Source: an uncultured archaeon (GTDB taxonomy: Archaea; Asgardarchaeota; Lokiarchaeia; Sigyniarchaeales; SOKP01). Taken from it: a stretch of DNA of 32,403 nucleotides. The notes beneath the pieces were generated by a model. That model was given only the letters and a program-made list of their open reading frames with translations, made no database searches and was not told the DNA's origin. Below are positions 21,949-30,824 of this stretch, one piece after another. The first letter of the stretch is position 1, and each line of letters begins with the position of its first letter. The stretch covers positions 1 to 32,403 of the forward strand of contig CAZWEM010000051.1 in the NCBI GenBank assembly GCA_964632315.1, read 5' to 3'. The translations under genes and the position numbers were made by a program.

Positions 21949-21968
21949 TTGATTTTTTCTTTTTTTTT
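21949..21968. terminator. T-tract between convergent genes
   Basis: ttgattttttctttttttttaa directly after the SmAP3 stop. Confidence 0.4.
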
Positions 21969-22473
21969 AATTTTCTGAATTTTCATTCTCAAATATTTTT
22001 ATAAGATTATCCAATTGTAGATCATTATAAATATTCTTTAAAGCTGCTTTCCCTAAAGGACTTAATCTAATAATGCTAAACTCCTCGTTTTTTCGGATAT
22101 AATCATTATCTATTAAAAATTTTAAATCTGTATCCCATATTTCTTCAAAAATTTCTTTAATATCTTTAATTGGAATGACTTCGTCTAAATCTTTACCTAT
22201 AGCTGCAATGATAGCCAAAATTCCATATTGGCTTGGAGTAATATTATCATCAATCCCATCTGTTGTTAAAATATAGTATCCCTGACCAAGAAAGTTAGTT
22301 TTAATTAATTCAAAACCAACTCTCTGCAGGTTTAAATATACTTCACTCATGATTTCTTCAAAATTTAAATCTCTACTAATTGTTTTTAGATCCTCTTCCC
22401 TAATCATTTTTTGAGGACTAGTTAATATTAAATTTGCTATTTTTCTTGTTATTTGAACAATTTCACTTTCCAT
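21967..22473 (-). CDS. Tandem winged-helix protein, KITE-like (Nse1/Nse3-MAGE/ScpB/JetB class)
   Basis: WH-A: IREEDL..FEEIMSEVYLNLQRVGFELI..YYILT. WH-B: YGILAIIA..LKFLIDNDYIR..IRLSPLGKAAL. Size and pattern fit KITE proteins. Confidence 0.55.
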   Translation of the reverse strand: MESEIVQITRKIANLILTSPQKMIREEDLKTISRDLNFEEIMSEVYLNLQRVGFELIKTNFLGQGYYILTTDGIDDNITPSQYGILAIIAAIGKDLDEVIPIKDIKEIFEEIWDTDLKFLIDNDYIRKNEEFSIIRLSPLGKAALKNIYNDLQLDNLIKIFENENSEN

Positions 22474-22475
22474 AA

Positions 22476-24110
22476 TTAATTTACAATCTCATTAATTTTG
22501 ATTACATTTAAATTCTGTATCATTTTTTTGGGCTCAAAATTCTTAATAATAAAAGTCAAAGAAATATCTTTAAAAGATTGATCATTCCGAACTAAATTTA
22601 GAAGTTTTTTAATTGTTCTGAAAATAGAGCCTTTTTTATTAAATTTTTCAGGCAAAAAAGTGTTTGAAACAATTATCTGCTTTAAATTATTGATTAATTG
22701 GATAACTATTATAAAACATATGGTAATGTATACTTTTTCGGGCGTCGTTAAATCGTTAAATTTTAATTTCTTTTCCTTATTTCGCTGAAATTTAGGTTCT
22801 ATTAAAAATTTATCAGTTATTTTCGAAATAGAGAGATTTAATGAAATATTAAGATTAATTTCCCTTAGCAATGGATTGATTTTTACTTCAAATTCATTTA
22901 AAAGTTGCTCTATCTTGTGAAATGCTTTAAAGATTAAATCGACTTCCAAATTGTCATCTTTTTCTAAATCGAATTTTAATTTTTGGGTTAAATTCAGTTT
23001 ATCACTTACTTTTTCGATTAAGAAAGGAATATTTTCAGGTAAATAATTTTCAGTAAATTTTCTCGTATCTATTATATTTTGAATTTGTGAGTCCAGCTCG
23101 TCAATCTCATCTTTAACTTCTCTAGGCGTCCTTAAAGGGTCTGCCATAAGCGAGGCATTTACTAATTCATTCTTATTTACGAGGTTATTTAATTCAGCTT
23201 GTTTCTCAAAGATTCTTTCTTGATCTTGAGTGATTTCATTTTTAAGTTTCAGAAAATCGCTTTCTATTGACTCGTATTGTGGTCTGAACGATTCAAAATC
23301 AATTTTATCTTGTTTAATAGATTTTTTAATTTTTTTTGAATCATATTGAATTTCTTGAGCTTTAATTTGAAGAGCTCGAATTTTTTCAGCATTAGATAGA
23401 TCTTTGTCTATTTCAATCTGATCAAACCCTAATGCGCTTGGTTCTACTGAATTAGCTTCCATATCTCTTGTTATATAATTAATATACCTAAAACATTGTT
23501 TCTTTTGATTATCTAAGTTTTTGATTTGCTCATTTTTCGTCTGAATTTTTTCTTGAATTTTCTCAAATTGATTCTTTTTTTCTATATAATCTTTTTCAAG
23601 ATATTTTAATCGATTTTGATTCTTCTTTATTGAATTTTGCAATTTCTCAATTAAATCCTTAATAGCTAGCTTTTCACTTGATTTTTTATACTGCTCCGAA
23701 ATTTTTAACAGATTTATAGCTTTGTTCTTTTTAAGTTCAAGAATAAGGAGCTTAAATATATTTATAATATCAACAATTAAATCGTTATATTCTGAAATTA
23801 ATTTAAAATTTTGCTCAATATTTTCTACTTTTCTGTTCAATAGTGTTAAAAGCTCATTAATTTTTTTTAAATCATTGAATTCTTTAGATTTCTTATCTAA
23901 TGAATCAATAAATAGGGTAATTGGTATGCTCTCTAAATTTTCTAATATCTTAAATAAATTATCATTTTCTATGTTCGCAAGATCTTCCTTCTTAAAATTA
24001 CCCAAAACTAAGTTATATTTTTCTAGATTGTGAATCTCCCTATTTCCGATGAGCATTTTGCTTTCAAAATCCAATTTGTTTATATCTTCTCCATATCTAT
24101 TCTTTATCAA
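22476..24110 (-). CDS. SMC/Rad50-like coiled-coil protein with degenerate ABC ATPase head
   Basis: Long central coiled coil; C-terminal FNDLTTPEKVYITICFIIVIQ..QIIVSN aligned by eye to LSGGEK..hhhhDE; N-terminal YNLVLGN lacks GKS. Confidence 0.55.
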   Translation of the reverse strand: MIKNRYGEDINKLDFESKMLIGNREIHNLEKYNLVLGNFKKEDLANIENDNLFKILENLESIPITLFIDSLDKKSKEFNDLKKINELLTLLNRKVENIEQNFKLISEYNDLIVDIINIFKLLILELKKNKAINLLKISEQYKKSSEKLAIKDLIEKLQNSIKKNQNRLKYLEKDYIEKKNQFEKIQEKIQTKNEQIKNLDNQKKQCFRYINYITRDMEANSVEPSALGFDQIEIDKDLSNAEKIRALQIKAQEIQYDSKKIKKSIKQDKIDFESFRPQYESIESDFLKLKNEITQDQERIFEKQAELNNLVNKNELVNASLMADPLRTPREVKDEIDELDSQIQNIIDTRKFTENYLPENIPFLIEKVSDKLNLTQKLKFDLEKDDNLEVDLIFKAFHKIEQLLNEFEVKINPLLREINLNISLNLSISKITDKFLIEPKFQRNKEKKLKFNDLTTPEKVYITICFIIVIQLINNLKQIIVSNTFLPEKFNKKGSIFRTIKKLLNLVRNDQSFKDISLTFIIKNFEPKKMIQNLNVIKINEIVN

Positions 24111-25137
24111 AATGATTTTTATATTTCTTAAACTCCTCGGTTTTTAGTTTTTTTCTTTCTCTAATTATGTCGATTGGATCTCTTTGATCATCATCCTCAT
24201 TTAGGTAATCATCTTGATACTTTTTATCGAATTGAGATTTAAATTGTTCAATCTTTTCAGAGATTTCATCACTTATATTTAACTTTTTAGAATGATTTTT
24301 ATCTGGTTCTATTTCACTTAATTTTTCCCTTCTCTTCTTTCTTCTTCTTCTTTCAAATTCTTTTGAAGATAAATTTAAATAATCTCTATAAGATTGATTT
24401 TGTTCTTCTTGTTTTTTTTTATTTTTTTCTAATTCTTCCTTCTTTTTTGCTTTTTCAATTGACTCTTTTCTTGTTGATAATGCTTTATCTGTTAGTTTTA
24501 AATTATATTCATTAAAAAAAATGTCAAAAGTTAAATTATTGTCCCTAAGGAAAGCTTTTTTGAACTTCTCAATTAACAAAGGATCTGTATCTTTAGTTAT
24601 TTTGGTTAATTCTTTCTCAAGTCTTTTTTCTATAAGTATTTTATTAAAAAGCCCAAGTTTTTCAATCGATTTTTTGAATAAAGAATTTTCTTTTAGTGAA
24701 TCAAGTATTTCTAACCACTCGTTAAAATTTACTGAGGGAATGTAAGAGATTTCAGAAATGACTATACTAATAATTTTTCTCTTTATTAAGGATAATCCTA
24801 AATCCTTAACTTTTTGCTGATTTAGATTTAGATTTTTTAAGTTATTTTTATAATTTATTCTGTACTTTTTTATAAGATCTGCTTGAACTGATAATAATGA
24901 TGATATATTATTATTAGTTGCTTTAATTAATTCTGAATCAAGATTGTGAATTAAACTAAAGAGTTTATTTAATTGATTATCCTCAAGACCTAAAGCATCA
25001 CTTACTAATATTTCCTTTCTGATTTCTCCTAACTTCATAGAATTTTTTTCTAATTCATTAAGACTATTTTGGAGCTTTTTCACGGGCTCCGTAATTTCTT
25101 TAACTTTTTCCAAATCAAAAATGATAGTATTTGACAT
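24097..25137 (-). CDS. Hypothetical helical/coiled-coil protein with highly charged C-terminus
   Basis: 346-aa ORF in operon; K/E-rich, RRRRKKRREK tract. Confidence 0.75.
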   Translation of the reverse strand: MSNTIIFDLEKVKEITEPVKKLQNSLNELEKNSMKLGEIRKEILVSDALGLEDNQLNKLFSLIHNLDSELIKATNNNISSLLSVQADLIKKYRINYKNNLKNLNLNQQKVKDLGLSLIKRKIISIVISEISYIPSVNFNEWLEILDSLKENSLFKKSIEKLGLFNKILIEKRLEKELTKITKDTDPLLIEKFKKAFLRDNNLTFDIFFNEYNLKLTDKALSTRKESIEKAKKKEELEKNKKKQEEQNQSYRDYLNLSSKEFERRRRKKRREKLSEIEPDKNHSKKLNISDEISEKIEQFKSQFDKKYQDDYLNEDDDQRDPIDIIRERKKLKTEEFKKYKNHFDKE

Positions 25138-25158
25138 TATAATCTATATAAGTCTTAA

Positions 25159-26247
25159 TTATATTTCAGGAGGCTTTATTAAAGATTTTGAAGTCTTTTT
25201 ATTAGAATTTCTTGTACTTGCGAGTATATCTTGACGTTCTACATGAATGGCTGTGCCCCCTACCAATTTTAATGAATTATAAAATAGTTCATATGTTAAT
25301 AATTCTGTCGATATTGATTTTAATAAGGCAACTCTGGTTCCTCTCTCAATATCAGACCCAGAGTAACCATGAGTTAATTTTAAGAGACCATCATCCTGGA
25401 TCCGTTCACTTATTTCTTTCCAAAAGGCATTATTATCGAATTCAGAGATTTGACGACCTAACTTTTGTCTCAAATCCTTTTCGATTTTGTTGATTTGAGA
25501 ATATTCCGTTTCTATTTTCTTGAAAATAAGAGAATCAACCCCTATCTTTGCTTTTTTAATCTTATTGAGAAATGATTCTATGATTTTTTTCCTTAAATGA
25601 TAATCAGGAAAATCAAATTCAAAATGAAAGGTGAATCTTCTCCAGATTGCAGAATCTAATTGATGCTGATGGTTTGTGGCTCCAAAAATTGCTAAAGGTA
25701 CTCCTTCATAATTAACTCTATCAATTACTTGTAAGAATGAAATCACTGCTCTCTTTATTTCACCTACTTCGTGAATATTGGACCTTTCGGACCCTATAGC
25801 ATCAATTTCGTCAAAAAACAATATAAAAGCTCCTCTGTCTTTTGAAATTTCAGCTGATAGTTCTACTACATTTCTTATATTCTTTATTGTGTCTCCTAAT
25901 AGGGGGGATACAAGTCTATCCGATTCGACTACACAAATTGGAACGTTATATTTTTTTGCAAAACCTCTTGTAAGAGAAGTTTTCCCAGTTCCTGGAGGGC
26001 CGTATAGAAGAACAGTTAGATTAGGATTCAGATTCGTGTTTTTTAATTGTTCTATAAATTCATCATATTTAATTAAAGCTTTAAAAAAATCGTCAAGAAG
26101 ATCCTTCACAAATTCATTACCTATAATATCTTCTACTGTTTCTTTAATATCTGAAGAGAAGTAGATTGCGCCATATTTTCCTAACCTATCATTTATAACT
26201 TCATCAGTATAGATATTATTTCCGTTCCCATTTTTTAATTCAGTAAT
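25159..26247 (-). CDS. AAA+ ATPase (classic AAA clade, single module, no recognisable N-domain)
   Basis: Walker A GPPGTGKT, Walker B FFDEID, sensor 1/SRH ATNHQHQLDSAIWRRF, GYSGSDI. Frame is open upstream of GTG 26109 through ETVEDIIGNEFVK to a stop at 26256; start uncertain. Confidence 0.9.
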   Translation of the reverse strand: MTELKNGNGNNIYTDEVINDRLGKYGAIYFSSDIKETVEDIIGNEFVKDLLDDFFKALIKYDEFIEQLKNTNLNPNLTVLLYGPPGTGKTSLTRGFAKKYNVPICVVESDRLVSPLLGDTIKNIRNVVELSAEISKDRGAFILFFDEIDAIGSERSNIHEVGEIKRAVISFLQVIDRVNYEGVPLAIFGATNHQHQLDSAIWRRFTFHFEFDFPDYHLRKKIIESFLNKIKKAKIGVDSLIFKKIETEYSQINKIEKDLRQKLGRQISEFDNNAFWKEISERIQDDGLLKLTHGYSGSDIERGTRVALLKSISTELLTYELFYNSLKLVGGTAIHVERQDILASTRNSNKKTSKSLIKPPEI

Positions 26248-26272
26248 TGTTTTTCATCTCTTTTTATGTAAT

Positions 26273-27580
26273 TTAATTATACTTTCTTTCTTTTTCAAAT
26301 TTTTCACAATATAAGGCTACTTCAACAATTAGATCCTTCAAATTATCTATTTGAGATCCAATAAAATTAAATATTTCTTTACGATATTGTACAGAATCTC
26401 GAATTTTCATTTTATCTAAACCAAGATAATTTGGAAAGCATATTAATTTCATTAAATAAGGCAATACCTTTTCATTTGTCTGCAAATCCTTGAATATTGA
26501 ATAGAAAATATTTTCATCTGATAATTTCCATTTCAAGATTCCCATATATATTAAAAATGAAAAATTCAGAGAAATCCAGTTAAGCAATTCTTTAGATAAA
26601 AAACCTCTTCTTTGAGAAGAGAAAGCAAGGTAATACAAAATTAATGTTTCATTACTAAATTGAGGTAAATATCTAATTTTTCCGTCTGATTGCTTGTTAG
26701 AGCGAATAAAGTTATTATCTAATAAGATTTCTAAAAAATTTTCATTTGGAGCAATAAACAAATCATCAATAACTCGCAAACCTATTCTTTCACAAATCTT
26801 TTCAATTGCTTCTTCCTCAGCATTAGCAATTGAATCAATGTATGGTAAAAAAACATCATTTTTTAGTATCATTGGTACTTCATAATTTGCATTCTCTGGT
26901 AACAAGCCAAAATTAGGATCTAAATTGAAAAGGGAAGTTATGTTATTTATTATTTGATATACTTTAGGAGATAATCCCGGGATCTCAAAAAGGTCTTCAA
27001 CCTCGAGTTTTTCTCGATAATATGTATGAGGTTGGAGAATATGTCGTTGACATTCGTAAAAATCGACAGAGAATTCGAGAAGCTTTTCATAAATTATTTT
27101 TAAGTTAGTTCCCCTTGGAAATAATCTTTCTTCGAGGAATTTAGTAAGAGAATATAAATATGTATTTTCCAGATTTATTTCATCTGGATTAGTAATATGT
27201 CTTAGAATGTTAAGCGCGCTAATGGACTCATACAAGAATTCAATTATATAATCTTTAATGTCAATAATCGGAATATTTTCTCTATATTTTATAATAAAAT
27301 CTTTAATTATTTCATACACATTAGAACGATACATTGCGGAAAATTCTGAAAGAGCTCTTACTTTCCTAATATTTCTCTTTTCTTCTTCTTCGCGTATTTT
27401 ATCTAATACTTCAGTATCCAATAAGAGATCCGGATCTAAGTCACTTATCAATCTCCGTGTTTCTCTTAAAATTGGTCTCATATGACTTATAAAAGTTAGA
27501 TATCTAGGAAAGATATCAGTCCATTTTTCTCTTTTTCTCCCTGTTTTCGTTGATCTTGTACTTCTTCTTTTATAACTCAT
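26273..27580 (-). CDS. Hypothetical protein (435 aa) with basic N-terminal tail
   Basis: Long ORF with ATG, tight operon spacing; MSYKRRSTRSTKTGRKR tail; no motif recognised. Confidence 0.8.
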   Translation of the reverse strand: MSYKRRSTRSTKTGRKREKWTDIFPRYLTFISHMRPILRETRRLISDLDPDLLLDTEVLDKIREEEEKRNIRKVRALSEFSAMYRSNVYEIIKDFIIKYRENIPIIDIKDYIIEFLYESISALNILRHITNPDEINLENTYLYSLTKFLEERLFPRGTNLKIIYEKLLEFSVDFYECQRHILQPHTYYREKLEVEDLFEIPGLSPKVYQIINNITSLFNLDPNFGLLPENANYEVPMILKNDVFLPYIDSIANAEEEAIEKICERIGLRVIDDLFIAPNENFLEILLDNNFIRSNKQSDGKIRYLPQFSNETLILYYLAFSSQRRGFLSKELLNWISLNFSFLIYMGILKWKLSDENIFYSIFKDLQTNEKVLPYLMKLICFPNYLGLDKMKIRDSVQYRKEIFNFIGSQIDNLKDLIVEVALYCEKFEKERKYN

Positions 27581-27599
27581 TATATTATTCCTTTATACT

Positions 27600-28739
27600 T
27601 TAATTTTCATCATAACCAACAGCTATTTCAGTAAATATGTTAGCGATTTCTACAAATATTGGAATTTCAACTCTAACTAGTTCACCTAAAATCCATTTAT
27701 TAACATCTTTAAGTAGGAATCTAATTTGATTGTGAATTTTTTTATTGATCTCAGAATCAATAATTTTTGATAGCCATAGACCTCCCCCTAATCTATACGC
27801 TATAATTTTTATTAAAGGCTCAAAAAGAGGTTCTAAAACTTGTTTCATCATCCAAGATTTAGGAATAACGCTCATCGAACCTTGATCAAATGCAGGTTCG
27901 TTTAAAATAGGATTTGTTTCATCTAAATTCAATTTCGGCATGAAGCTTAAGAGTAATATTAAAGCAAAGATAGCACTTATACCATTTACCGTATACGCAC
28001 CCCCAATTTTATCGAGATCATCAAAATTTACAGCGATATTTGCTAAAAACATACATATAAATACATTTCTATCAAAAGATTCAGAAACATATGCATATCC
28101 TAATTTATCATCTAAAATTAGATACTTTTCTTGCAATATTTTAATAATCTCATCTGGAAACGTATAAAAAGTGTAGGTTTTTTCTTCACTTCTTCTCACA
28201 TCCTTATTTATAATCAATTCTCTGGATACTAAACCAAACATATTTACCAGTTCATCCAATTGTTTCTTAATATAATGTCTGGGTTTGTTCGGATCTCCAA
28301 ACATTGCATAAAATTGATAATCAACTATATGAAAATCGTTTCTCTTACTAAATGCTTCCACCATGCGGTCGATTATTGGTGCTTGAGATCCAGTAGCTAT
28401 TGCTTTTACTTTAGAAGTTACAAATCCGTTTAATAATTCATTAATGATGAAATCTTGCTCATGAGTGCGTGATTTCAATATACTTTCGAATGCACGAGCA
28501 AAATTTTTTGTGCTTGGGAAAAAAGCATTTTGAATTTTTTCGTTAATTGCTTTTATGAATAAAGCGCCGTCATTTTGAGGAAAATATTGTTTTATATTCT
28601 CTAATCTTTGAATTAAAGCATTTTTAGCTCCAGGGATATTTTCTACATCACGATCTTTAACTTTTTCGATAGCAATGCTTAATCCCTTTTCAAAGGATAT
28701 CAATAATTCATTCCAAGTTCGATTTTTTCTTTCAATCAT
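27600..28739 (-). CDS. Hypothetical protein (379 aa)
   Basis: Long ORF with ATG, 19-nt gaps on both sides; no motif recognised. Confidence 0.8.
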   Translation of the reverse strand: MIERKNRTWNELLISFEKGLSIAIEKVKDRDVENIPGAKNALIQRLENIKQYFPQNDGALFIKAINEKIQNAFFPSTKNFARAFESILKSRTHEQDFIINELLNGFVTSKVKAIATGSQAPIIDRMVEAFSKRNDFHIVDYQFYAMFGDPNKPRHYIKKQLDELVNMFGLVSRELIINKDVRRSEEKTYTFYTFPDEIIKILQEKYLILDDKLGYAYVSESFDRNVFICMFLANIAVNFDDLDKIGGAYTVNGISAIFALILLLSFMPKLNLDETNPILNEPAFDQGSMSVIPKSWMMKQVLEPLFEPLIKIIAYRLGGGLWLSKIIDSEINKKIHNQIRFLLKDVNKWILGELVRVEIPIFVEIANIFTEIAVGYDEN

Positions 28740-28758
28740 CTAAAATCATTCTATTGTA

Positions 28759-29721
28759 TCATTTTTCCCATTTTAGATCATTAGCTATTTTTTTTAACGC
28801 TTCTATTAAAGGTTTGAGTATTTCTTTATCATAAATGTTTGGTGAAGATACTCCCCTTTGACTTTTCCAACCCATTTGAGTATTCATTCCCATTTCTCTT
28901 TGACCATATTTGATGAGATTACTAAAATCTCGATTCCACCAATAAAAACGTAGCCATCTTTTGCTTTCTACACCTTTAGTATAAATAACCACGATTGCTT
29001 TCCATTCTCCAACCAGCCATTTAACTGTTATCCCACTTACGGGTAAATAAAAGTTGATTGGAAAATTAGTTTGAAATCTTAAATCCAAATCCTTAGGATC
29101 GATATTAAAAATGGGTTGGTTATAACCCTCTAAAATTACAATTTCTGAACAATGTTGGCAAATATAATGAGATTTATGTTTTTCCATTTTCTGTTGACAG
29201 TTAGGACAAGTTCGATTTTCTATGATCCGAGCTTTAATAATTTCTATTTTCTTTTCTTTTTCCCTTTCCTCTTCAGTCTTTACTTTTTTTGCTCCAAATT
29301 TTCCTTTCCAGTTCCATTGATCATCAAAAGATTCATCTATTTTTTCAAGTGCATTAATGGTATTTTGAAGTACAATTCGGTTATAGATTTTAAACATGCC
29401 AGCGTGTTGATAGGTTTTCCACCAAGAAATTCTAACGTATTTTTCCTCTTTTAAAATTGAACTATGGCAAATCAAAACTGCTAGAACTCTCGTATTTGTT
29501 GAATGAACTACAATCCCTTTCTCACAAATTTCGTAATCTTTGTTTAGTGATAATTTGGTATGAAAATATTCTCCATCCTTAAGACCAGATGAATCTTCCT
29601 TTTCTTCTAAGACCTCAGATTTAGATTCGCTTTTCTGCTTTAGAATTTTCCTGCATCGAGGACATTGATATATGCCTTCGACCAAGGGCTCCATCTCTAT
29701 ATTACATGCAGGACAAATCAT
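28759..29721 (-). CDS. Protein with two tandem [Zn ribbon + beta-rich, possibly PC4-like] units
   Basis: CPAC..CPRC and CPNC..CQHC ribbons, followed by YVRISWW..KIYN..NTINALEKI and WLRFYWW..NIYD..PLIEALKKI respectively. Confidence 0.75.
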   Translation of the reverse strand: MICPACNIEMEPLVEGIYQCPRCRKILKQKSESKSEVLEEKEDSSGLKDGEYFHTKLSLNKDYEICEKGIVVHSTNTRVLAVLICHSSILKEEKYVRISWWKTYQHAGMFKIYNRIVLQNTINALEKIDESFDDQWNWKGKFGAKKVKTEEEREKEKKIEIIKARIIENRTCPNCQQKMEKHKSHYICQHCSEIVILEGYNQPIFNIDPKDLDLRFQTNFPINFYLPVSGITVKWLVGEWKAIVVIYTKGVESKRWLRFYWWNRDFSNLIKYGQREMGMNTQMGWKSQRGVSSPNIYDKEILKPLIEALKKIANDLKWEK

Positions 29722-29723
29722 TT

Positions 29724-30824
29724 CTATTCTTCACTACTGGTAATTAATAATCGTTCGAAATCTAAATTAAGTAAACGTAAATCTTTCTTGTTAAAGTTTG
29801 ATATTTGTTCGTTTATCTCTATTATCTTTTCTCTCAGATCAATAAGATCGTTTTGTATATTATTGACAATATTATCTTCATTAAATGATACTTTTTCTAT
29901 AAAGGCGAGATAAGTATTCTTTTTATTTTTTCCAGTGTAATAATTCCTCAAGATGTCTATTTCTTTTTTGATATCGTGAAATCTTGCTCGTGCCTTTAAC
30001 AATAAATTCATAGTAGAATACCACTTATTAAATAAACTGTGATTTTTATCCACTTTATCATAATTAAATTTCTCAGATAATTTGATTTTCTCATCTTTAA
30101 GGTAACTTATAATCTCTCTATCTTCTTCTATCGCATTTTTAATTTTTTTCATCGTGGGTTTTGAATTTAATAAGGGATCAAATATTTCAATATGTTGGTT
30201 AAGTTTTTCTTCTATTTCATTATACCTCTCAAAAAAACCCTCAATTGTATGTTCAATTTTAATTGCTTGAAAAATATTTCCAAACTGGTCCAATATGTAA
30301 TAGAGATCATCCGATATAGTATAATCATGTTCACCTATCTCATAAAGAAAGGAATGTATGATATTTGATTTTTGACAGCTAACTCCCTTTAACTTTGTAA
30401 GAGCCAAGTTAAAATCTCTTCTCATTATCGATTTAAACTTTTTAGTTATGAAAAGAAAAAGAGTGTCAGCAGGTACAGAAACAACTTTATTTTCAATTGT
30501 GATTGTTTCTTCACCTAATTTCAAAAGAAAATCTCCAGCTTTTTGTTCAAATTCTCTTAAACTTCGAATATTTTTGAATAGACCTAAGTCAATAGCAATA
30601 TTAGTAAATTCTTTATCCCAGAACTTAATAACATTATCTTTATATATTTCATCAAGTATCAAGACTCTTTCATATGAATCTAGAAGATTTGGATTGTTTA
30701 GATCATCAAATAAGTCATTACGAATTATGTATAAAAACAAAATTATATATCTCATATCTATATCTTCAAGGATTTTATTTATCAAATCCTCATCTTCATC
30801 TAATGATAAGTTCTGATGTTCCAT
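29724..30824 (-). CDS. Hypothetical protein, probable N-terminal winged helix plus helical/coiled-coil C-half
   Basis: TLFLFITKKF..RRDFNLALTKL..FLYEIGEHDYTISDDLYYIL WH-like pattern; heptad-rich C-terminus; first gene of the operon. Confidence 0.75.
   Translation of the reverse strand: MEHQNLSLDEDEDLINKILEDIDMRYIILFLYIIRNDLFDDLNNPNLLDSYERVLILDEIYKDNVIKFWDKEFTNIAIDLGLFKNIRSLREFEQKAGDFLLKLGEETITIENKVVSVPADTLFLFITKKFKSIMRRDFNLALTKLKGVSCQKSNIIHSFLYEIGEHDYTISDDLYYILDQFGNIFQAIKIEHTIEGFFERYNEIEEKLNQHIEIFDPLLNSKPTMKKIKNAIEEDREIISYLKDEKIKLSEKFNYDKVDKNHSLFNKWYSTMNLLLKARARFHDIKKEIDILRNYYTGKNKKNTYLAFIEKVSFNEDNIVNNIQNDLIDLREKIIEINEQISNFNKKDLRLLNLDFERLLITSSEE

Follow-up and report, generated by a model that had tools for sequence, protein, structure and literature searches.

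Organization of the operon

The window analysed here is a 32,403-nucleotide stretch of DNA (contig CAZWEM010000051.1) from an uncultured archaeon of the Loki-type Asgard group, and its minus strand carries, at positions 21967-30824, an eight-gene operon that most plausibly encodes a derived member of an Asgard system combining structural maintenance of chromosomes (SMC) proteins with an AAA+ ATPase. All coordinates are window positions, and the labels G1 to G8 follow the order of transcription. The eight open reading frames lie head to tail from 30824 to 21967, with listed spacers from G1 to G8 of 2, 19, 19, 163, 21, -14 and 2 nucleotides (nt). The fourth spacer, between G4 and G5, is really about 19 nt and not 163 nt, because no stop codon interrupts the G5 frame as far back as 26253, and orthologues conserve the 48 residues thus added.

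The operon is tightly packed between a divergent upstream gene for Elf1 (PF05129, 3.4e-18) and a convergent downstream gene for an Lsm plus Lsm_C (SmAP) protein; the eight-gene co-directional unit and the flanks given in a preliminary description of this DNA are confirmed. The same description called the operon AT-rich and free of mobility genes, and rightly so: the GC fraction is 0.24-0.32 inside it and 0.26-0.38 in the remaining window, the G6-G8 end being the most AT-rich, and no mobility genes occur within it. A clear family had been claimed for the AAA ATPase alone, and in a Pfam scan of the eight proteins only G5 is clearly above the cut-off (AAA, 91 bits), with G2 barely above that of Zn_ribbon_6 (26 vs 25 bits, 9e-6). 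A GIY-YIG nuclease gene is found about 0.9 kb downstream of the operon.

G7 is an SMC relative without ATPase motifs

G7 (22476..24110, minus strand, 544 amino acids, aa) belongs to the SMC/Rad50 superfamily by fold and sequence, but it lacks the Walker A, signature and Walker B motifs and the hinge. The AlphaFold2 model built from 18 orthologues (mean confidence, pLDDT, 81.7) has N-terminal strands, two long antiparallel helices (residues 76-218 and 240-418) and a C-terminal alpha/beta region, the head being formed by the N- and C-terminal halves. The hinge domain is absent from the model, where a low-confidence loop of about 20 residues joins the two helices. When the model was compared with the PDB by Foldseek, the best 50 matches were almost all SMC/Rad50-superfamily chains, with E values of 5e-10 for Rad50, 9e-7 for LmuB, 5e-6 for the Pyrococcus Smc head and 4e-6 for Smc5/6; JetC and MukB are also among these 50. 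Re-alignment by VIA placed the G7 head on the Smc5/6 head 8hqs_B with Z 11.0 and a root-mean-square deviation (rmsd) of 7.0 over 256 residues, but was otherwise dominated by generic coiled coils. The predicted structure thus retains a head-plus-coiled-coil fold.

Profile comparison by hhalign leads to the same family. G7 aligns to the C-terminal head of the intact SMC protein of a sister operon (Form B, described below) with a probability of 94.4% and an E value of 9e-8 over 213 columns. Its N-terminal half gave no significant match to the SMC N-terminal head (14 columns, E 0.039). At the Walker A site, the only invariant residue is G37 (in GNFKKE), and there is no P-loop. The motif LTTPEK aligns to the signature SSGQKQ, and IIVSN stands at the Walker B position, aligned to IDEFD. 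Therefore, the degenerate SMC-like protein with a dead ATPase in the preliminary description is borne out by the AlphaFold2 model, Foldseek and hhalign, and G7 descends from an Smc5/6-like SMC protein, having lost the hinge, about half of the arm and all nucleotide-binding motifs.

Since every catalytic motif and the hinge are gone, and since identity is low even within a genus, one might regard G7 as a decaying, pseudogene-like relic without a function of its own. This is most improbable, and the idea is already largely refuted: about 18 orthologues keep a reading frame of about 500-560 aa without internal stops, the model from 18 sequences is confident, and invariant positions persist, among them L454 and E458 of the LTTPEK motif. 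In several other orthologues, the called frame is 424-515 aa, which probably reflects the calling of start codons.

G8, G6 and the kleisin

G8 (21967..22473, minus strand, 168 aa) is, according to its AlphaFold2 model (pLDDT 89.9), a tandem winged-helix protein of the kite class. Its best Foldseek matches are MAGE-G1/Nse1, the Nse1-3-4 complex, ScpB, JetB and MukE, and those that cover its full length are kites only. The VIA alignment to the Nse3/Nse1 chain 7dg2_C has Z 11.4 and an rmsd of 4.8 over 159 of the 168 residues, so the earlier assignment of a KITE-like protein holds, with Nse3/Nse1 as the best fit. A feature search returned weak leads only (MAGE, 0.77). In one orthologue, from an f2 genome (L039:11910-12650), the C terminus is extended by a long (T/K)-rich tail of KKKTT-type repeats, which is absent elsewhere.

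The gene preceding G7, G6 (24097..25137, minus strand, 346 aa), encodes a fast-evolving, K/E-rich protein with a basic tail. It has no family match in Pfam, PADLOC or NCBIfam, and hhalign detected no similarity to the Form B genes that resemble Nse4_C and MksE. By position, G6 is a candidate kleisin substitute. A complex prediction for G7, G8 and residues 1-245 of G6 had a median of 0.63, against 0.48 with G7 replaced; it gives no verdict and is not used as evidence.

The AAA+ ATPase and G1 to G4

G5 (25159..26253, minus strand; listed as 25159-26109, 316 aa) is, to judge from its motifs, an intact AAA+ ATPase of the classical clade, and it has every catalytic motif. Walker A (GPPGTGKT), Walker B (FFDEID, with DEID), sensor-1 (ATNH) and the arginines of WRRF are intact and invariant. 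The Pfam match is PF00004 (8e-26), and the closest solved structures are D2 domains of p97/Cdc48 (about 1e-52). The N-terminal extension of about 48 residues is conserved even in distant relatives. The first canonical start codon of the frame is a GTG at 26109, with no in-frame ATG, GTG or TTG in 26110-26253, and the orthologues start with ATG. Either G5 starts at a near-cognate codon (e.g., ATT at 26247-26245), or the assembly has an error close to the run of A at about 26230.

Upstream of G5 are four genes on the same strand. G1 (29724..30824, 366 aa) has no Pfam family, and its homologue is the first gene of Form B (hhalign 98.8%, E 9e-17, 299 columns). G2 (28759..29721, 320 aa) is a duplicated unit, each half consisting of a CxxC...CxxC zinc ribbon and a domain of about 100 aa with an RLSWW or RFYWW motif. 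The two halves align to each other at E 5e-4, and the eight cysteines are invariant or nearly so among 19 orthologues; the zinc-ribbon protein described earlier turns out to carry two ribbons by internal duplication. G3 (27600..28739, 379 aa) and G4 (26273..27580, 435 aa, always after G3) are the best-conserved proteins lacking a known family. The G3 family is tiny, with 41 representative clusters among 1.84 billion proteins; its distant relatives occur, in all resolvable contexts, in G3-G4-AAA-SMC arrangements, and a feature search with G3 found nothing. The G4 profile has 602 relatives, those listed being unnamed or "hypothetical protein" and none having a Pfam domain. Sequence searches with G1, G2, G3, G4, G7 and G8 against solved structures returned coiled-coil or zinc-ribbon noise only.

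A sister operon with an intact SMC protein

We refer to the eight-gene layout of the window as Form A. A rare second layout, Form B, is found in two genomes of the second of two families discussed below (f2), G032 and G172, both of which are without Form A. Its order is a gene of about 380-400 aa, a G3-like gene, a G4-like gene, the AAA+ gene, an SMC gene and three small genes, one with a weak MksE match, one with a weak Nse4_C match and one of 176 aa. The SMC protein bears a hinge and has 1057-1071 aa in G032 and G172 and about 1050-1200 aa across Form B. These proteins conserve GRNGxGKS, SSGQKQ and DEFD, and they align with the 1136-aa SMC protein of the window's genome from the N-terminal head through the arm into the hinge region. 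Their best matches among solved structures are Smc5 (5e-9) and Smc6 (3.5e-8).

Single-sequence hhalign comparisons of G6, G7 and G8 with the proteins of G032 were insignificant, and the homology of the two forms is seen only by profile-profile comparison with deeper alignments. By that comparison, the last gene of Form B matches G8 (98.8%, E 1.3e-16). G1, G3, G4, G5 and G8, as well as G2, are common to both forms. G7 occupies the slot that is held in Form B by an intact, Smc5/6-like SMC protein. Since the same AAA+ family stands beside an intact SMC gene in Form B, the AAA+ ATPase did not arrive to replace a dead SMC motor. Of the earlier proposal that the one stands in for the other, the dead SMC ATPase remains, but the substitution is weakened.

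The Form B-type layout also surrounds distant metagenomic G3 relatives (loci L115, L117 and L120). In the G3 tree, Form A of the two families (f1 and f2) forms one clade (96/97) within which f1 is monophyletic, as fits vertical descent, and Form B of G032 and G172 groups apart from it with metagenomic sequences, in a clade with good support. In G032, Form B has beside it the GHMP-kinase/Lsm pair known from the flank of Form A in f2, but lies in inverted orientation. Taken together, the tree and the synteny indicate that Form A is an old, vertically kept derivative, and that Form B either replaced Form A in a few species or survived there.

Two further layouts were found. That of genome G170 (L104:190-10886) reads G2, 432 aa, 463 aa, G3, G4, AAA, 265 aa, 678 aa and 157 aa; its G3 is sister to that of Form A, and its 678-aa middle protein has no significant match to G7 or to the long SMC protein. 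The distant variant of genome G120, of family f17 (L113:1-9244 and L106:1-5000), reads E1(E2)-JAB-386aa-397aa-G3-G4-AAA-SMC, with a ThiF/E1 gene that is fused to E2 in L106, a JAB peptidase gene and a second G3-like paralogue.

Conservation across Asgard genomes

Our sample consisted of 400 genomes of the phylum Promethearchaeota, of which 134 belong to family f1, 14 to family f2 and 252 to other families. With the G3 profile, the gene was detected in 118 of the 134 f1 and 13 of the 14 f2 genomes, with one weak match among the remaining 252, and G4 is single-copy in 22 of 24 congeneric genomes and 10 of 11 genomes of a sister family. Only 3 of the 400 genomes carry the kleisin-like gene of Form B. 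The order of the eight genes is constant in the 31 loci compared, from most genera of f1 and f2, and both flanks are kept wherever enough flanking DNA was retrieved. One of these loci comes from a 6.03-Mb single-contig genome. Because the same eight genes, order and flanks recur in each genus sampled from the two families, the shared arrangement goes far beyond chance, and the gene order, whose scattering had been named as a possible refutation, proves to be conserved. We conclude from the sequences that the operon is most plausibly a resident, vertically inherited one in two Loki-type Promethearchaeota families.

The eight proteins do not evolve at one rate. Between families, G3, G4 and G5 are about 50% identical and G2 is about 40% identical; G1 and G8 reach about 30-35%, and G6 and G7 stay below 30%. 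Within a genus, identity is about 30% for G6 and G7 compared with about 80% for G3 and G4.

Five f1 genomes of 90-100% completeness are apparently without G3 and G4. In the three for which a flank was located, a contig ends inside the flanking gene or a 100-N spacer adjoins it, and loss of the operon from near-complete genomes was rejected as an explanation, the three cases examined being assembly gaps at the flanks. The breaks fall at the Lsm or Elf1 flank (G217:C1, about 902500-902640; the start of G274:C10; the start of G264:C64), and G274:C18 (64630-64821) is a further location in these apparently operon-less metagenome-assembled genomes. Metagenome assemblies appear prone to break at this locus, which is AT-rich and fast-evolving.

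Relationship to known systems and proposed function

Extra SMC-kleisin-kite operons described as "SMC5/6-related" are known from TACK and Asgard archaea (van Hooff et al., bioRxiv 10.1101/2024.01.07.573240; Yoshinaga & Inagaki 2021, PMC8665677). As in these, an SMC-family protein adjoins an Nse1/3-like kite in an Asgard operon, and in Form B the intact SMC protein best matches Smc5/Smc6 and a later gene has a weak Nse4_C match. Unlike in these, G7 has 544 aa and neither hinge nor ATPase motifs, a recognisable kleisin is missing, and five further conserved genes are present, including that of an AAA+ protein with intact motifs. The trees of Yoshinaga & Inagaki (PMC8665677) took only sequences with all motif blocks, so G7 would have been excluded from them. 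With eukaryotic Smc5/6, the operon shares a kite whose best structural matches are Nse3/MAGE and Nse1 and an SMC head that aligns to Smc5/6 heads. It differs in having one SMC-like gene, no ATPase, hinge or RING/SPL-RING subunits, and, as partners, an AAA+ ATPase and proteins lacking known families. The likeness does not demonstrate descent from the direct ancestor of eukaryotic Smc5/6.

Hinge-less SMC homologues of marine Actinobacteria keep their ATPase domain (Sussfeld et al. 2025, PMC12153180). G7 resembles them as an SMC relative without a hinge; a relationship with that protein was rejected, since it is actinobacterial, ATPase-intact and found in a different context. In the searchable literature, we found no description of the operon, of its dead mini-SMC or of the AAA+ partner, and by that measure the operon is an undescribed variant of the SMC-kleisin-kite kind.

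We propose that the operon encodes a resident DNA-maintenance complex, in which an SMC/kite scaffold without a motor works with an AAA+ machine, and we give this proposal about an even chance of being right. G7, probably as a dimer, together with G8 and perhaps G6 would bind DNA as a passive clamp or scaffold that has no motor itself, and the sole ATP-driven step would come from a G5 hexamer. G1, G2, G3 and G4 may be adaptors or substrates of G5, and the adaptors and G5 would load, release or remodel the clamp or its cargo. The role would be one of housekeeping DNA maintenance, such as repair or the handling of particular DNA structures, as for Smc5/6. Housekeeping is favoured over an accessory defence island because the operon is near-universal, single-copy and fixed in position.

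Several points weigh against this proposal. G1-G4 and G6 are without an assigned fold. No kleisin was identified in the operon, either by Pfam or, for G6, by hhalign to the Form B genes, so that an "SMC-type complex" would be minus one of its defining subunits. The named family closest to G5 is that of the anti-phage ATPase IetA (PADLOC 2e-59, 199.8 bits). The fast evolution of G6 and G7 fits an arms race as well, Form A in some species of a genus is replaced by Form B in others, and the G120 variant may, by analogy with CBASS or Bil, tie the system to ubiquitin-like conjugation genes.

The main alternative is an SMC-based immunity, like Wadjet, Lamassu or virus-restricting Smc5/6 in function, which we consider serious but rather unlikely. 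The dead mini-SMC and kite would sense foreign DNA (ends, small circles or replication intermediates), and the IetA-like AAA+ ATPase, with G1-G4, would execute or license the response. Such a role would account for the IetA match, for LmuB and JetC in the Foldseek list of G7, for the E2/E1 and JAB genes of the distant variant and for the rapid divergence of G6 and G7. It would also suit the exchange of Forms A and B within genera beside the same GHMP-kinase/Lsm flank, the two forms lying in separate deep clades, and the contig breaks at the locus, which might reflect strain-level variability. However, a single-copy operon at a fixed site, in nearly all genomes of two families and with a vertical phylogeny, is unlike known accessory defence systems. 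Pfam and PADLOC found no nuclease, protease, Toprim/JetD, LmuA-type effector or IetS partner in the operon, and there are no adjoining defence genes. PADLOC recognised no complete defence system here; beyond the IetA-like match of G5, it gave weak coiled-coil matches for G7 only (LmuB 2.3e-4, JetC 0.07). In addition, the score of G5 against the NCBIfam model IteA (175 bits, 1.8e-51) is far below the cut-off of 510.

Wadjet (JetABCD/MksBEFG) and Lamassu (LmuACB) likewise combine an SMC-fold protein with kite-like or kleisin-like partners and extra operon genes, and JetC, JetB and LmuB are among the structural matches of G7 and G8. They differ in that the present operon lacks both a JetD/Toprim nuclease and an LmuA effector, occurs with conserved synteny almost throughout its clade, and encodes a G7 that is predicted to be unable to bind ATP. 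With regard to IetAS, the AAA+ core of G5 can be aligned to IetA models, but the N-terminal 100 or so aa of IetA are unmatched by G5, the equivalog cut-off is not reached, and neither an IetS-like protease nor, according to Pfam, any peptidase family is found among the operon's proteins.

SMC complexes are defined by their ATP-driven heads. Here, an SMC descendant that has no nucleotide-binding motif left is maintained intact by most of the species sampled in two families, and its operon is still linked to the AAA+ gene and to the same partners as the catalytically intact sister SMC. This makes the operon a natural experiment that asks what function is left to an SMC arm and its kite once the motor is gone, and in what ways SMC rings might be acted on by AAA+ machines. 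Asgard archaea are the closest prokaryotic relatives of eukaryotes, and some of the Loki type are now in culture; the Asgard host and the Smc5/6-like sister SMC therefore bear on the origin of the eukaryotic SMC repertoire and its regulators. The operon also provides a testable context for five orphan protein families, those of G1-G4 and G6.

Other SMC genes and a second AAA/SMC pairing

Intact SMC-family genes, one of 1487 aa and one of 1136 aa, and Mre11-Rad50 are present in the genome of the window. In five relatives, there are three intact paralogues of SMC (about 1500, 1200 and 1187 aa), and a Rad50-sized gene is seen in most. Since intact SMC paralogues and Rad50 are already present in these genomes, G7 and the Form B SMC represent an additional SMC lineage, the fourth beside the three intact paralogues and Rad50.

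One of these SMC genes is itself paired with an AAA-fold gene. On contig C44 of the window's genome (locus L109, G000:C44:17000-33000), a minus-strand gene at L109 9809-11029 encodes a 406-aa AAA-fold protein that has lost Walker A, and directly downstream of it is the gene of the live 1136-aa SMC protein with hinge (L109 6323-9733, minus strand). The 406-aa family matches that of G5 in both the N-terminal extension and the AAA core (hhalign 89.6%, E 1.9e-6), and across the order the gene is found upstream of an SMC gene of about 1187 aa. The genome thus has two places where an AAA-fold gene adjoins an SMC gene, with opposite partners predicted to be catalytically dead, and the linkage recurs irrespective of which partner is catalytically alive.

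This second pairing is relevant to the possibility that the operon merely joins two separate modules on one transcript, G1-G5 as an AAA+ machine whose protein targets have nothing to do with SMC and G6-G8 as a structural, DNA-binding remnant. The conservation contrast between G1-G5 and G6-G8 is sharp, and the complex prediction without a verdict leaves room for such a division. Moreover, insertions have occurred at the G2|G3 and G3|G4 junctions of two genomes that keep the remaining operon genes: a PocR histidine kinase gene between G2 and G3 (L091:2418-3812), and genes of a prenyltransferase-like 1006-aa protein and of 805-aa and 440-aa proteins between G3 and G4 (L093:1285-9574). On the other hand, an SMC-family gene follows G3-G4-AAA in every distant context with enough DNA, the AAA-fold/SMC pairing is repeated elsewhere in the genome, and among the 400 genomes G3 is found only where the operon or, for the one weak match in G120, parts of a related locus are present. 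Two independent modules therefore seem unlikely to us.

If the linkage of the two genes is functional in the way that our proposal of a joint complex would have it, it is tempting to go one step further. In one Asgard SMC lineage, an AAA+ ATPase may be an integral partner by ancestry, and catalysis may have been split three ways: both proteins alive in Form B, AAA+ dead and SMC alive in the paralogous operon, and AAA+ alive and SMC dead in the window. There, the AAA+ ATPase would be the sole motor of an SMC-shaped clamp, with loading and unloading driven by the ring. We regard this extended scheme as speculative and, on present evidence, improbable. Were it true, an unfoldase-type ring, and not the SMC protein's own ATP cycle, would drive loading and unloading; to our knowledge, a ring-driven loading mechanism has been described for no SMC complex.

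Beyond the 1136-aa gene, the C44 locus continues on the minus strand with genes of a 215-aa protein (L109 5672-6319) and a 174-aa protein (L109 5137-5661), which are probably a kleisin and a kite. The 1136-aa protein was considered as an Smc5/6-type SMC and rejected as such, its best matches among solved structures being canonical Smc proteins.

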